A stretch of DNA of 62,757 nt, from contig CAVTCR010000015.1 in assembly GCA_963733195.1 (NCBI GenBank), forward strand, positions 1-62,757, in the 5' to 3' direction. Below the pieces are notes generated by a model, which was given only the letters and a program-made list of their open reading frames with translations, searched no databases and was not told where the DNA came from. A program made the translations under genes and the position numbers. This document shows, piece by piece, positions 47,315 to 53,804 of the stretch. Within the stretch, counting starts at the first letter, position 1. The number at the start of each line of letters is the position of its first letter. This stretch comes from an uncultured delta proteobacterium. Its GTDB lineage: Bacteria > Desulfobacterota > Binatia > Bin18.

Positions 47315-47445
47315 AGTCCAAACAAGGCAAACGGCAAAAAACGAAAGCGCCTAACCCCCTCCCGGCCCCTGATGAGATTGCGCCATCGGGTATATTTGTT
47401 TTGGGCTCCCTGTGTCACAATACTGAAGACACAAAGAAACAGGAG

Positions 47446-47784
47446 ATGGCTATGGCGATCGTGGAAACTCTGACTGCTGAACCGCCGCCGCTTTACGTAA
47501 CTGACGAGGGCGTAGTGCGGGTTACTGGCACTCGTGTCAGCCTCGACACGGTGATCGGCGCCTTTCAGAACGGTTCTACAGCTGAACAAATTGCTTATAA
47601 ATATCCGTCTCTCAACTTGACCAACATCTATGCGGTGATCACCTATTACCTCCGTCATCGCCAAGAGGTCGAAGCCTATCTGGCTCAACAGCGCCAAGAG
47701 ACCGAAGATATACGGCGGGAAGTGGAGGAACGTTTCTCTCCGGCTGGCGTTCGTGAACGTTTACTAGCACGGCACAGACACTAA
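47446..47784 (+). CDS. DUF433-family antitoxin
   Basis: VRVTGTRVSLD.V..AFQNG.TAEQI..YPSL.L..IYAVI.YYL. Confidence 0.88.
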   Translation: MAMAIVETLTAEPPPLYVTDEGVVRVTGTRVSLDTVIGAFQNGSTAEQIAYKYPSLNLTNIYAVITYYLRHRQEVEAYLAQQRQETEDIRREVEERFSPAGVRERLLARHRH

Positions 47785-47795
47785 GTCTTAATCCA

Positions 47796-48146
47796 ATGAT
47801 TCGTTTCATAACGGACGAAGATTTCGACAACGATATCCTCCGTGGAGTTGTTCTCAGACTTCCAGGACTCGATACCGTGCGTGTTCAAGATGTTGGCTTG
47901 CTGGGGAAAGACGACTCTATAGTGCTGGAATGGGCGGCTCGCGAAACGCGAGTCTTGTTGACTCATGATGTCCGTACGATGAAACACCATGCATATGCAC
48001 GTTTGACGGCCGGGCTGTCGATGCCAGGCGTATTTGTCGTGCCACAGTCTCTTCCCATTGCTCAAGCAATAGAAGAAGTGCTGCTATTAGCAGAGTGCAG
48101 TGTGGACGGTGAATGGGAAGGACAAGTTCGATTTCTGCCACTGTAA
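47796..48146 (+). CDS. DUF5615 PIN-like toxin
   Basis: RFITDEDF, DVGL.G.DD..VLEWA, RVLLTHD. Confidence 0.88.
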   Translation: MIRFITDEDFDNDILRGVVLRLPGLDTVRVQDVGLLGKDDSIVLEWAARETRVLLTHDVRTMKHHAYARLTAGLSMPGVFVVPQSLPIAQAIEEVLLLAECSVDGEWEGQVRFLPL

Positions 48147-49035: not shown

Positions 49036-50598
49036 TCACGAACGAAAGCTTGCCCAATTCACTCCGAGTTTTCTCATCCGCGCTCGCAAAGTGTGTGGAT
49101 TGATGTTGAGGAGGGCAGCCACTCCTTGTGGTCCTTCGACGCGCCCCTGGGTAGCCGCCAATGCCTGCTCGATATGCCGCTTAGTTGCCTCATCCAACGA
49201 AAGAATAGCGGAAGTGTCAGTCGCTGCGGTCGAGTGTGGAGGTTTCGTTGTTGGAGGGAACGCAGTGATATTGGTGCCCACACCCAAGGCTCTGGCTACT
49301 TCAAGCCGCTTGCCGTCTCCAAGCAAGGCAGCCCGGTCGATTACTGCACCCAGCTCGCGAACGTTGCCCGGCCAGGGGTAGGTGGCGAGCAGCGCTAGAT
49401 CCTCAGCAGCCGGAAGCTGCAATTTCAACCCAAAGTGCACCGCAGCCCGACGGGCGAAATGCTCCGCAAGCAGCGGAATATCCTCCTGACGCTCGCGCAA
49501 AGGAGGCAGGACAATCGGAAACACCGCAATCCGGTACCAGAGATCTTCGCGGAACGTGCCGCCTTGGACCATCACGGCCAAATCACGGTGCGTGGCGGCA
49601 ATAATCCGTACATTGACTTTGATGGAGTGCTCTCCACCGACCCGCTCAAAGGAACCATCTTGCAAGACTCGCAATAGACGAACCTGTGCTGCGAGTGGAA
49701 GTTCGCCAATCTCATCGAGGAAGAGGGTTCCTTCATCAGCCCGCTCGAACCAGCCTCGTCGCGTTGCCGTGGCACCGGTGAAGCTGCCTTTTTCATGACC
49801 AAAGAGTTCGGCATCGATCAGCTCTGGAGGAATAGCGCCGCAGTTGACGCGAAGGAATGGTCCGCGCGCCCGTGGGGAGCGATCGTGAATCGCACGGGCA
49901 ATCACTTCTTTACCTGAGCCGGTTTCCCCAAGTAAGAGGACAGGCACATCCGAACGAGTCACTAGGCCTACTCGCTCCATAACGAAGCGTAAGCCCCGGT
50001 CAGCGCCAATGATAGGGGCAGACAACTCTTCTCGCCCCAGGCGGGTGAGGAGAAAGCGCTTATCGGCTTCGGCAGCTTCTCGTAACGCCTGGAGTTCATG
50101 AAGTCGGTGGTCGTTATCCAGAGCGACGGAACACGGTTCGAGCAATTCCTCACACAGTTTCTCCTGTTCAGGAGTCAAACGATGCGCAGGTGATATTTGT
50201 AGGAGCAGCACGCCATAGGTGCCATGTTCACTGACCAGAGGACCGACGATAACCTCTCCTTCCGTGAAGGGGAGGAGAGCAGCAAAGCCAATATGTTTGC
50301 TCTGACTATTCGCTCTATAACGCTGGAGCTCGCCACGGCGACACCACCGTAACAGCCGCTCTATCTCCCTTGCGGGCCAGTTGGTTGGATCAGGAGGGAC
50401 TTCGTCGCTAACTGAAGCGGGGACGAGGGTGACGGTCTCCAGACGCGAACGCTCTTGGTCAATCCGGCGGATCGCCAGCCGAGTAAGTGGTAGGCGGTGT
50501 GTCACCATTGTGTTTAAGGTCGCGGCAAATTCCGCAATCTCACTATGGCGACTGACCTCGCGCCAAACCTCTAACAGGAAGGCAAGAAACGGCTTCAT
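49036..50598 (-). CDS. sigma54-dependent enhancer-binding protein (GAF-like + AAA+ + HTH)
   Basis: GETGSGKE, GSFTGA, LFLDEIGE, FREDLWYR, WPGNVREL, C-terminal Fis-type HTH. Confidence 0.93.
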   Translation of the reverse strand: MKPFLAFLLEVWREVSRHSEIAEFAATLNTMVTHRLPLTRLAIRRIDQERSRLETVTLVPASVSDEVPPDPTNWPAREIERLLRWCRRGELQRYRANSQSKHIGFAALLPFTEGEVIVGPLVSEHGTYGVLLLQISPAHRLTPEQEKLCEELLEPCSVALDNDHRLHELQALREAAEADKRFLLTRLGREELSAPIIGADRGLRFVMERVGLVTRSDVPVLLLGETGSGKEVIARAIHDRSPRARGPFLRVNCGAIPPELIDAELFGHEKGSFTGATATRRGWFERADEGTLFLDEIGELPLAAQVRLLRVLQDGSFERVGGEHSIKVNVRIIAATHRDLAVMVQGGTFREDLWYRIAVFPIVLPPLRERQEDIPLLAEHFARRAAVHFGLKLQLPAAEDLALLATYPWPGNVRELGAVIDRAALLGDGKRLEVARALGVGTNITAFPPTTKPPHSTAATDTSAILSLDEATKRHIEQALAATQGRVEGPQGVAALLNINPHTLRARMRKLGVNWASFRS

Positions 50599-50792
50599 AC
50601 GATTGAACTGTTATATGTACTAGATAAAGCCGTTAAATATCAAGGCTTCTATCGTATTTAATAGCTCTGTGAGATTTCACTACTTTTTCTATAGATGAAA
50701 TAGCTTTAAGAAAAAAGGCCGCAGCCATCTTCTGCTGTGAATTCCTTTCACATTCTCCATGACTACGCTTCAAAGGAAAGAAAATACTCTGA

Positions 50793-50808
50793 TTGGCATT
50801 GTTCTTGC
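50793..50808 (+). promoter_or_regulatory. sigma54 -24/-12 promoter
   Basis: TTGGCATTGTTCTTGC with GG at 50795-96 and GC at 50807-08; divergent bEBP gene adjacent. Confidence 0.85.
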
Positions 50809-50847
50809 CTAGAATGAACGGACTCAATGAGAACCCTCGAGTTTTTT

Positions 50848-51030
50848 ATGCCACATACACGGACGACAGACAACGAATGGGATCCGAACCTCGAACAGCA
50901 AATTCTGCGGGCAATCAAGCACGTCCGTTATGGCTCGGTGGAGATCATCATTCATGACTCGAAGGTCGTGCAGATTGAGCGCAAAGAGAAGATCCGCTTC
51001 AACCACGACAGCACGGAAAACAACAAGTGA
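50848..51030 (+). CDS. YezD/OscA (DUF2292) family small protein
   Basis: VRYGSVEIIIHDSKVVQIERKEKIR; first gene of the sulfate operon. Confidence 0.88.
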   Translation: MPHTRTTDNEWDPNLEQQILRAIKHVRYGSVEIIIHDSKVVQIERKEKIRFNHDSTENNK

Positions 51031-51063
51031 GGACTAGCGGTAGCATAGTTGACGGGATCGCCC

Positions 51064-51135
51064 GCCGACCAGATGACTGGAGGCAGGCGAAACTCCTATT
51101 TTTCAACGTCGCAGGACCGACCGGACAACCGGAGG
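51064..51135 (+). promoter_or_regulatory. Two copies of a candidate RNA hairpin motif CCGA-stem4-loop4-stem4-AGG
   Basis: GCCGA-CCAG-ATGA-CTGG-AGGC (51064-51084) and CCGA-CCGG-ACAA-CCGG-AGG (51117-51135). Confidence 0.65.
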
Positions 51136-51162
51136 CGCTCAGGCAAGGAAGGAGTCCGTGTG

Positions 51163-52671
51163 ATGAGATCGCGCCGGTTGTTCATGCTTGTCGCGGTGAT
51201 GATAAGTATGGGGGTAGGAACACCACAAGTTGTGATGGCAGAAGGAAAAGCGCTCAAAAAAGCGCTGTCTGAGAAGAGAGCGTTAGAGGACAGAGTGGAA
51301 GCATTGGATCGTAAAGTGCGCGTGTTGGAGCAACGGTTGGAGCAATCTCTGGGCACTGCCGGAGGAGCGAGAAGCGTGGTTGTACCTGCAGCGAAAGCAG
51401 AACAAGTCGAAGCGCTTGATCAGAAGGTACGTATTCTTGAACGGCGCTGGGAACTCGACCAGGAACAAGCGACCGCCAAAGCGAAGGAAGCACCGGTGGT
51501 TACTGCCGGGAAAGAGGGTTTCTCACTCAGAGCCGCGGATAATAGCTTTCAATTACGCATTCGTGGGTACACCCAAGCCGATGGACGCTTCTTCGCTGAT
51601 GACAAGGAGCGTGCGCTCACCGATACGTTTTTGCTGCGCCGGGTGCGCCCTATCCTTGAAGGAACGGTGGGCAAGTATTTCGATTTCCGCATCATGACGG
51701 ACTTTGGCGGAGGCACGGCGACGGTCCAAGACGCCTACTTGGATATCCGCCCGTGGTCATGGGGGAAGCTCCGCGTCGGAAAATACAAGCCTCCAGTTGG
51801 TCTTGAACGCTTACAATCAGGATCGGAATTGTTCTTTGTCGAGCGTGGACTGCCGACTAACCTGGTGCCGAACCGCGATGTCGGCGCGCAGATTCATGGA
51901 GATTTGTTCGACGGGGCGTTCACCTATGCGTTTGGCGCGTTTAACGGGGTGGTAGATGGAGGCAGCGGTGATCTAGATAATAACGACAGTAAAGAGTTCG
52001 CTGGTCGCCTGTTTGGTTTCCCGTTCAAAGCAACTTCAATTGAACTGTTGCAGGGACTTGGTCTTGGTATAGCCGGAACTTATGGGGACCAGAAAGGCAG
52101 TACCGGCTCGCCTTTCTTGCCGACGATGAGAACGCCAGGGCAACAGGCTTTCTTTAACTACCGCTCCGACAATACTGCCGCTGGCACTACCATCGCCAAT
52201 GGGATTCATTCGCGTGTTTCACCGCAGGGCTATTACTACTATGGGCCATTTGGCTTGCTGGGGGAGTACGTGCGGTCGTACCAACCTGTGCAACGCGGAA
52301 GTGCCGCCGCAAACTTGGATAATGAATCCTGGCAGGTTGCGGTCTCCTACGTGCTCACTGGCGAGAATGCTTCGTATCGGAGTGTCTCGCCCGTCAAACC
52401 CTTCGATCTGACAAAAGGGACCTGGGGTGCGTTCGAGGTTGCTGCACGATATGGGGAGTTAAACATCGATAAGGACGCCTTCCCCATCTTTGCTGATCCC
52501 ACCAGAGCTGCCCGTGTGGCTGAATCCTGGGGCCTGGGACTCAACTGGTATCTCAGTCGCAATGTGAAATTCCAACTGAACTACGAACAAACGGACTTTA
52601 CCGGCGGCAGCACCAAAGGTGAGCGGCCGAAAGAGCGTGCGATTCTCAGCCGCTTCCAGGTCGCGTTCTAA
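51163..52671 (+). CDS. OprO/OprP-family anion-selective porin
   Basis: Signal peptide, coiled coil, FLLRRVRP, GKYKPPVGLERLQS, RDVG, GLNWYL, C-terminal QVAF. Confidence 0.88.
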   Translation: MRSRRLFMLVAVMISMGVGTPQVVMAEGKALKKALSEKRALEDRVEALDRKVRVLEQRLEQSLGTAGGARSVVVPAAKAEQVEALDQKVRILERRWELDQEQATAKAKEAPVVTAGKEGFSLRAADNSFQLRIRGYTQADGRFFADDKERALTDTFLLRRVRPILEGTVGKYFDFRIMTDFGGGTATVQDAYLDIRPWSWGKLRVGKYKPPVGLERLQSGSELFFVERGLPTNLVPNRDVGAQIHGDLFDGAFTYAFGAFNGVVDGGSGDLDNNDSKEFAGRLFGFPFKATSIELLQGLGLGIAGTYGDQKGSTGSPFLPTMRTPGQQAFFNYRSDNTAAGTTIANGIHSRVSPQGYYYYGPFGLLGEYVRSYQPVQRGSAAANLDNESWQVAVSYVLTGENASYRSVSPVKPFDLTKGTWGAFEVAARYGELNIDKDAFPIFADPTRAARVAESWGLGLNWYLSRNVKFQLNYEQTDFTGGSTKGERPKERAILSRFQVAF

Positions 52672-52726: not shown

Positions 52727-53804
52727 ATGATTGTGCAGGTTCTGCATTCGGCTGTGCTCCATGTACTGGCACTCCACGCTTTGTGCCGGAGTAACGCAAG
52801 GTCTTCGTTGTACAGTTCATTGCGCAGTCTGGCCATGCCTGAGCTGGCACCAGCCAGGCGCAGAAAGCCGTCATCATACTCAACGTTTCCTACGATCCCA
52901 CGCGTGAATTGTACCAGGACTTTAACACTGCCTTTGCCAAGTACTGGCAAGGAAAAACCAACGAGGTGGTCACCATTAACCAATCCCACGGTGGCGCTGC
53001 AAAGCAGGCCCGCGCGGTGATCGATGGGTTGGAAGCTGATGTTGTCACTCTGGCGCTCGCCTACGATATTGATGAGATTCATCAGAAGGCGAAACTCATC
53101 CCTGCTGATTGGCAAAAGCGTTTGGGCAATAACAGCGCCCCCTATACGTCGACCATTGTGTTGTTGGTGCGCAAAGGCAACCCCAAAGGCATTAAGGATT
53201 GGGATGACCTCGTTAAGCCAGGAATTTCAGTTATTACTCCAAATCCGAAAACATCTGGCGGTGCTCGCTGGAATTACTTGCCGCGTGGGGGTATGCGCTG
53301 AGACAACCCGGCGGTGATGAAGCCAAAGCGAAAGATTTTGTGACCCGTCTGTACAAAAATGTACCTGTCCTCGACTCGGGTGCGCGTGGGTCAACGACTA
53401 CGTTCGTCGAGCGCGGCATTGGTGATGTGTTTATCTCGTGGGAAAACGAAGCGCTTCTTGCTATCAAAGAACTGGGCCCAGACAAATTTGAGATCATTAT
53501 TCCTTCAGTCAGTATTCTCGCTGAGCCACCAGTCACCATCATCGACAAAGTGGTTGACAAACACGGAACCCGCGCCGTTGCTCAAGCGTATCTGGAGTTC
53601 CTCTACACAGCGGAAGGCCAGAAGATTGTAGGAAAGCACTACTACCGTCCACGGCTGGCGTCGGTTGCTGCCGAGTATGCCAGTCAATTTCCCCAAGTGA
53701 ATTTATTCACCATTGATGAAGTATTCGGGGGGTGGCAAAAAGCGCAGAAAACCCACTTTGCCGATGGCGGGACGTTCGACCAGATCTATCAGCCGGGCAA
53801 ATAA
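52727..53804 (+). CDS. sbp: Sulfate-binding periplasmic protein (frameshifted; start uncertain)
   Basis: [41 protein letters not shown]. Confidence 0.92.

Follow-up and report, generated by a model that had tools for sequence, protein, structure and literature searches.

A tandem RNA hairpin element that accompanies DUF2292 genes in sulfate-uptake operons and may control translation of the following gene

The window, a stretch of 62,757 nt from an uncultured delta proteobacterium (its genome is called G000 below), carries a sulfate-uptake operon headed by a small gene, yezD (50848-51030, + strand). The gene encodes 60 amino acids from an ATG at 50848; another in-frame ATG lies ahead of it at 50827, and relatives start at the MPH/MPQ position. 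The product matches the Pfam family PF10055 (DUF2292) with 61.6 bits (cut-off 22, E 5.1e-17), which makes it a member of that family. Against the NCBIfam model NF033785 (sulfur_OscA) it reaches 50.7 bits (E 1.3e-13), below the equivalog cut-off of 85, and we therefore treat window YezD as a relative of OscA and not as an equivalog. Next on the same strand comes a gene for an outer-membrane porin of the Porin_O_P family (51163-52671, ATG at 51163; Pfam E 8.2e-37), followed in order by sbp, cysT, cysW and cysA. The sbp gene (region 52909-53804) is split across two frames, with open reading frames at 52909-53301 and 53340-53804 that both match SBP_bac_11; its protein continues in another frame near 53283, as though one base were missing, and the stretch 5' of 52909 holds no clean signal-peptide frame. 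The split gene could be a genuine pseudogene or an assembly error.

Divergent from yezD lies a gene that Pfam identifies as a sigma-54 activator, weakly GAF-like in its N-terminal part (49036-50598, - strand), and about 40 nt 5' of the yezD start codon we find a sigma-54-type promoter-like site, TGGCAT-N5-TTGC (50794-50808, + strand). The same pattern has 292 matches across the whole of G000, and it stands ahead of yezD in 3 of 68 loci: the window, L004 and, as a looser match, L040. Because the site recurs just in the close relative L004 and more loosely in L040, sigma-54 control of the sulfate operon looks lineage-specific and no general feature of yezD loci. Elsewhere in the window, two adjacent small open reading frames (127 and 116 amino acids; 47401-48146) resemble a toxin-antitoxin-type pair, as a candidate only.

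Between the DUF2292 and porin reading frames lie two hairpins of 19 nt each. Hairpin 1, supported by folding and by conservation in relatives, has its core at 51065-51083 (CCGACCAGATGACTGGAGG, + strand) and an extended 12-bp stem at 51058-51090; hairpin 2, supported by a covariance model and by covariation, occupies 51117-51135 (CCGACCGGACAACCGGAGG, or CC-GA-CCGG-ACAA-CCGG-A-GG, + strand). A sequence-only reading of this DNA had described a tandem motif between yezD and the porin gene with starts 52 nt apart, and inner stems that differ by a compensatory pair (CCAG/CTGG versus CCGG/CCGG); motif, spacing and stems are all as it had them. That reading had also called the GA/A internal loop fixed, which holds for hairpin 2 and fails for hairpin 1, whose 5' internal-loop bases vary in other genomes (G in 25/40, A in 30/40). 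The part common to the two hairpins is the 3' strand, CNGG-A-GG. The terminal loops, AUGA and ACAA in the window, are 4 nt long across loci and rarely 5, with variable positions 2-4 and no conserved G.

Contigs from metatranscriptomes (four runs from three studies) map to 50712-51465, and single RNA-library contigs, at 50962-51112 and 51017-51203, cover the 3' end of yezD through both hairpins into the porin start. Since such contigs do not prove a transcript, they give a weak hint that yezD, the hairpins and the porin start are co-transcribed, and the lack of cover before 50712 and after 51465 carries no meaning.

The strict motif pattern with a pairing stem occurs five times on the two strands of the 6.95-Mb genome, this pair accounting for two of the five, and the sequence-specific form GACCRG-N4-CYGGARG is found at these two places only. 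A covariance model of the hairpin, R1, scores the pair in G000 at 37.1 bits (hairpin 2) and 31.9 bits, with the next-best match at 17.8 bits (E 0.82). From the pattern counts and this gap in score, the motif is not a dispersed repeat. Its restriction to one locus is also unlike the regulon of a global regulator, and this bears on CsrA, a GGA-binding protein whose dimer might bridge the two hairpins. Each hairpin does hold a GGA, within GGAGG, and the spacing of 21-47 nt falls within the range that we take CsrA dimers to bridge, but the GGA lies in stem and bulge and not in the loop as at CsrA/Rsm sites, and PF02599 was not found in G000 (93% complete). We regard CsrA-type control as scarcely credible.

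A DNA-similarity search of 41 genomes matched seven, G000 included, and the six relatives share the order yezD, hairpins, porin gene. Both hairpins are present in five of these six; the remaining locus (L007) has a pattern match for hairpin 2 only. In the 13 hairpins from the seven genomes 97.8% of cells pair, three of the seven pairs show both-sided changes, and a control in which the pairing partner was slid by 1-3 columns brought pairing down to 18-47%. Over a broader set of 71 R1 matches (64 distinct), 98% of cells pair and both-sided changes appear in four of the seven pairs, counts that come from an alignment fitted to R1, and hence leaning towards structure, and that overstate independence because the genomes are related. 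The third inner pair among the 64 distinct matches is GC in 34, CG in 21, AU in 6 and GU in 2; the model and the search patterns were derived from the hairpin motif itself, and the C-G form of this pair was not in the training set of R1. The hairpins are a conserved structured RNA element, and the covariation that the sequence-only reading had seen in a single pair of stems extends to compensatory changes in both sets. Also in line with that reading, which had named a known Rfam element as the alternative, no Rfam 15 family matches the hairpin region or the related loci: a scan of 50600-51300 at E<=10 yielded three rows with E from 1 to 9, all put down to chance and all lying off the hairpins, and a scan of 20 related loci gave no match at E<=1, even for loci in which both loops read ACGA.

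U-G and G-U wobbles are frequent at the outer pairs; U-G stands at one outer pair in 23 of the 64 distinct matches, and at another pair in 8 of 64. Such pairing suits an RNA made from the gene strand and is at odds with a DNA palindrome. The palindromic inner stem and the helical-scale spacing of the two sites (38-62 bp) would suit inverted repeats bound by a dimeric transcription factor at an internal porin promoter. In DNA, however, those wobbles would be mismatched half-sites; moreover, the conserved flanks are asymmetric, every real match lies on the gene strand, and our scan of 50500-51400 found no promoter-like site at which such an operator would act. A DNA operator is therefore a most improbable account of the repeats.

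The two hairpins differ sharply in stability. Hairpin 1 folds with an MFE of -19.8 kcal/mol (z -4.85; 0 of 200 shuffles fold as well), whereas hairpin 2 on its own has little stability (-9.2 kcal/mol, z -1.14). Folding, RNAalifold and a permutation test point to an alternative long-range structure at 51123-51183 (+ strand) that excludes hairpin 2. In its first part, GGACAACCGG (51123-51132), which runs from the last bases of the 5' stem of hairpin 2 across its loop and 3' stem, base-pairs with CCGGUUGUUC (51174-51183) in porin codons 4-7; in its second part, GCGCUCA (51135-51141) pairs with UGAG..CGC (51164-51172) across the AUG. Enclosed between these strands is the Shine-Dalgarno region of the porin gene, AAGGAAGGAG (51145-51154, + strand), as read from the sequence, and a CCGGUUGU box lies within the porin coding sequence. 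A fold of 51110-51185 has an MFE of -30.7 kcal/mol (z -2.41), against -9.2 for hairpin 2 by itself.

Comparison across loci shows how widely this pairing holds. The RNAalifold consensus of nine genomes is the long helix, and L004 keeps the helix by exchanging a C-G pair for U-A, with a C-to-U change in hairpin 2 and a G-to-A change in the coding partner. When we compared the duplex formed by hairpin 2 plus 10 nt with dinucleotide shuffles in 44 non-redundant loci, the mean z was -1.67, with 14 of 44 below -2, and pairing with the locus's own downstream region was stronger than with those taken from other loci, at a level that 0 of 2000 permutations reached. Leaving out the loop gave a mean z of -1.36 (10/44 below -2), and the post-hairpin segment alone a mean of -0.45. 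The duplex z is above -2 in 30 of the 44 loci, the window included (z -1.26); the signal is strong in Nitrospira-type and gammaproteobacterial loci and absent in GC-rich Binatia-type loci. The box C[CT]GGT begins 30-40 nt past the hairpin in 15 of 49 rows, and its reading frame in the window is not the one it has in L069, a sign that the RNA is constrained here and not the protein. A helix that covers the beginning of the downstream gene and competes with hairpin 2 is present in a good part of the loci and is not general. It is a new finding at this locus, where hairpin 2 competes with a longer helix that takes in the start codon and the opening codons of the porin gene.

This competition bears on what the element does. 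The sequence-only reading had proposed that YezD antiterminates, stabilises or translationally controls the operon; translational control gains from the contest between hairpin 2 and the start-codon helix, and nut-style antitermination gains nothing. A scan of 50500-51400 listed three sites, none of them at 51058-51141, where a GC-rich stem running directly into a U-run, as in an intrinsic terminator, is lacking, and it called nothing terminator-like at the hairpins or downstream of them. A lambda-type nut site combines a boxB hairpin, whose conserved GNRA-like pentaloop is read by protein, with a linear boxA; here, by contrast, the loops are not conserved, and spacer alignments inspected by eye hold no conserved linear box. 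Hairpin 1 does run directly into a U-rich tract in two loci from gammaproteobacterial MAGs (L060, L068), and the window has a T5 run 15 nt past the stem, as would be expected if hairpin 1 and a U-run halted transcription after yezD unless a factor acted. A U-run after hairpin 1 is nevertheless found in some genomes only and is missing from most loci, all GC-rich ones included, and the RNA-library contigs, for what weak weight they carry, pass through both hairpins. We consider transcription attenuation very unlikely.

The element is tied to DUF2292 operons across phyla. In 151 genomes of the class, R1 has matches in 84 at E<=0.1 and PF10055 is found in 44; 34 of the 44 DUF2292 genes have a same-strand hairpin match within about 150 nt downstream, while for four others the match is 0.7-1.1 kb away, for another it is 3 kb away, and five lack any (two of these at contig ends). 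All 22 matches at E<=0.001 outside G000 lie on contigs with yezD. Of the weaker single R1 matches in genomes lacking yezD, eleven were inspected (L160-L170); these fall in apparent coding stretches, none of them tandem, and were treated as false. Scanning named genomes with the tandem pattern gave at least 121 matches in at least 119 stretches, and among the matches listed at least 40 have a DUF2292 reading frame upstream on the same strand. The record labels of these span about ten phyla: Nitrospiraceae, Nitrospira lenta, other Nitrospira, Methylomirabilota, Binatia and Binataceae; Pyrinomonas methylaliphatogenes K22, Vicinamibacteria and Thermoanaerobaculia; Verrucomicrobiota, Planctomycetales, Latescibacterota, Hydrogenedentota, and MAGs of Gamma- and Betaproteobacteria. 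Both surveys bear out the enrichment beside DUF2292 genes on which the sequence-only reading had staked its proposal. Most of the other tandem-pattern matches listed are chance occurrences in high-GC actinobacterial or Pseudomonas coding stretches; five in Pseudomonas share one conserved coding stretch and were set aside as chance.

The gene 3' of the hairpins is variable, and encodes Porin_O_P, Porin_4, DUF3034, a NosD-like beta-helix, an ACP-like protein or a product of no family. The constant partner of the hairpins is the yezD operon and not one porin family. Some operons have a second hairpin set further downstream. Verrucomicrobial operons (L198/L199, from G169 and G170; L047, L096, L104, L144) carry two sets each, a weak one between yezD and the porin gene and a strong tandem 3.7 kb further on, ahead of a DUF3034 gene. 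In one family of the class (L174 994-1566, - strand; L175 1029-1322, - strand), a PP-binding, acyl-carrier-like gene sits between hairpin sets, an odd passenger inside a sulfate operon. A planctomycete (L193, L194, on G173:C1) has three yezD copies, and the hairpins after two of them precede genes whose products have a prepilin-like N-terminal motif (FTLIELLVVIAII), judged by eye.

Breadth of this kind also bears on another reading, in which the hairpins are passive intercistronic stem-loops that set mRNA half-life or processing, by protection from RNases or as an RNase III substrate, with no regulated switch. Their location between cistrons and the very stable hairpin 1 (-19.8 kcal/mol) would suit such a role, and a double-strand RNase could cleave the long helix (10 + 7 bp). 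Stabilising hairpins are seldom conserved in sequence across phyla, however, whereas CNGG-A-GG and YGACC are kept from Nitrospira to Verrucomicrobiota; nor would passive stem-loops explain why there are always two alike, one of them co-varying with a coding start. A passive role is accordingly rather unlikely.

The link between hairpins and DUF2292 is strong but not universal. Pseudomonas OscA belongs to the same family, PF10055, and its gene has the same position at a sulfate-uptake operon, but all five Pseudomonas oscA loci lack the hairpins, with a 70-nt spacer to sbp and a best match of 10.6 bits (E 0.28), and the window protein scores below the OscA equivalog cut-off. Among 14 further yezD copies, seven are followed within 150 nt by a match, which is strong in three cases (31-35 bits) and weak in four (13-22 bits); the other seven have no hairpin match within that distance. 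Conversely, ten genomes have hairpins with no yezD in the fetched locus; PF10055 is encoded elsewhere in the genome in eight of them. A clear tandem pair is present in G049 (99% complete, 630 contigs), a genome in which no DUF2292 was detected, and G168 likewise has hairpins and no detected DUF2292. In G176 yezD comes last in an operon that begins with the hairpins. The G049 pair lies at a contig edge (L035, G049:C468, 1-480), about 400 nt from a divergent gene for a pstS-like phosphate-binding protein. In G011, a genome of the same family as the window, an orthologous porin (78% identical; L180, G011:C18, 2990-3160) lies directly next to the coding sequence for the C-terminus of the sigma-54 activator; the activator's N-terminal part, yezD, both hairpins and the opening codons of the porin gene are gone, as if deleted. 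Other porin matches in close kin, where we sought orthologous porin loci without yezD, are 27-33% identical.

Hairpins without a detected DUF2292 gene (G049, G168), or with yezD at the far end of the operon (G176), would be expected of a riboswitch, in which the two hairpins jointly bind a sulfur-related small molecule or ion that stabilises hairpin 2 against the helix over the start codon, with no protein needed. Two like hairpins with an alternative-pairing expression platform also recall the architecture of guanidine-II. The defining feature of that class is kissing loops of conserved ACGR sequence; here, in contrast, the loops are variable, do not read ACGR in the window, and it is the stem and internal loop that are conserved. 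Guanidine-II (mini-ykkC, RF01068; see PMC5486947) and the window element are alike in having tandem short similar hairpins in a 5' leader, joined by a variable linker and acting, in the window element by our reading, on the translation start, and they differ in that sulfate-uptake genes stand here in place of guanidine exporters and that no Rfam model matches. With free loops, the conservation of the element is confined to a 2x1 internal loop and its flanking pairs, which leaves little for a ligand pocket; a riboswitch would also leave unexplained the tight link to one small gene amid unrelated downstream genes, and no Rfam riboswitch model matches. On balance, a riboswitch is unlikely.

Other RNA candidates have been tied to sulfate. 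The sul1 motif, described in PMC5737381 as a candidate cis-regulator of sulfate transporter genes for which no sulfate binding was seen, is like the window element a candidate leader RNA of sulfate uptake with no known ligand, but it differs in structure and belongs to another gene (the sul1 transporter), and our Rfam scans, which we take to include sul1, gave no match. The dauA motif of Streptomyces (PMC11109978), also a sulfate-tied candidate, likewise has another structure and other neighbouring genes. The window element is not described in the literature searched; the supplementary tables of PMC5737381 and PMC11109978 lay outside that search and could list it under another name.

We next considered the protein. 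DUF2292/OscA is, to our knowledge, a widespread sulfur-starvation protein whose mechanism is not known. The predicted model of window YezD has one helix and a beta-hairpin (mean pLDDT 76). Prediction of a homodimer scored 0.42 against 0.16 for the best control, a mark reached by 20 of 30 one-chain-pair structures and by 1 of 23 single-chain structures, counts that are approximate (custom alignment); at least 96% of contacts are shared between runs, the partner pLDDT is at least 62, and strand 36-43 of both copies is paired. Proteins of the family are weakly basic (median pI 8.15, median net charge +1) and have almost no Cys or Met. A Foldseek search of the PDB with the YezD model gave no match to RNA-binding folds or others at E<=0.001, its weak rows including MazE and AbrB at E about 3, and a wide VIA search gave a best Z of 2.5. 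By sequence, the PDB returned two meaningless rows (E 0.67 and 1.8), and the protein atlas DUF2292 clusters only. In the text accessible to our literature search, no account of DUF2292 function was found, a P. fragi paper lists a DUF2292 gene as differentially expressed, and the name YezD appears only in B. subtilis papers and unrelated old texts.

Weighing these observations, we lean, by a little, towards reading the hairpins as a conserved cis-acting RNA element in the sulfate-uptake mRNA that works as a translational switch held by a trans-acting factor; the paired hairpins probably switch the amount of the next protein made. Hairpin 1 would be a stable, pre-formed stem-loop. Hairpin 2, being weak, may give up its loop and 3' half, along with the bases that follow, to pairing with the start and opening codons of the porin gene, and because the long helix greatly exceeds hairpin 2 in stability, the initiation region should be hidden by default. 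Some factor might then read the feature common to both hairpins, a stem with a sequestered GGAGG whose A is unpaired; by keeping hairpin 2 closed, it would free the initiation region and allow translation. We infer both the direction of control and the need for any factor.

Gene neighbourhood makes a YezD dimer, encoded directly upstream on the same transcript, the leading candidate for the factor, an identification we put forward tentatively and at less than even chance. A comparable case is that of ANTAR regulators, dimeric proteins thought to need two adjacent small hairpins, the second of which competes with a structure that turns the gene off; the hairpins they target carry hexaloops in which A1 and G4 are conserved, and there it is a terminator that competes. 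The likeness lies in the two hairpins, in an off-state competitor of the second and in the proposed dimeric protein. The window element differs from ANTAR targets in its tetraloops of free sequence and in its competitor, a start-codon helix with no terminator-like site at the hairpins. By extension, and with equal reserve, DUF2292/YezD/OscA may conceivably form a novel family of tiny RNA-binding regulators that work as dimers, with one hairpin per subunit. Each hairpin would offer a Shine-Dalgarno-like GGAGG, sequestered and with its A bulged, and closure of the second hairpin on binding would unmask the next start codon.

If this scheme is correct, sulfur-starved cells would build their outer-membrane entry for sulfate only once the first product of the operon accumulates or senses a sulfur metabolite, and a protein family previously without a function would gain one. 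In any case the element adds to sulfate-uptake control a candidate leader RNA not found in Rfam 15, carried by the environmentally important Nitrospira, Acidobacteriota, Verrucomicrobiota, Binatia and Planctomycetota, and it offers the DUF2292 family a concrete and cheap question, whether YezD binds the hairpins. Mutational and structural studies can address a 19-nt hairpin and a 10-bp competitor directly, given their small size, and the records name a cultured carrier, the Pyrinomonas strain listed above (L154).
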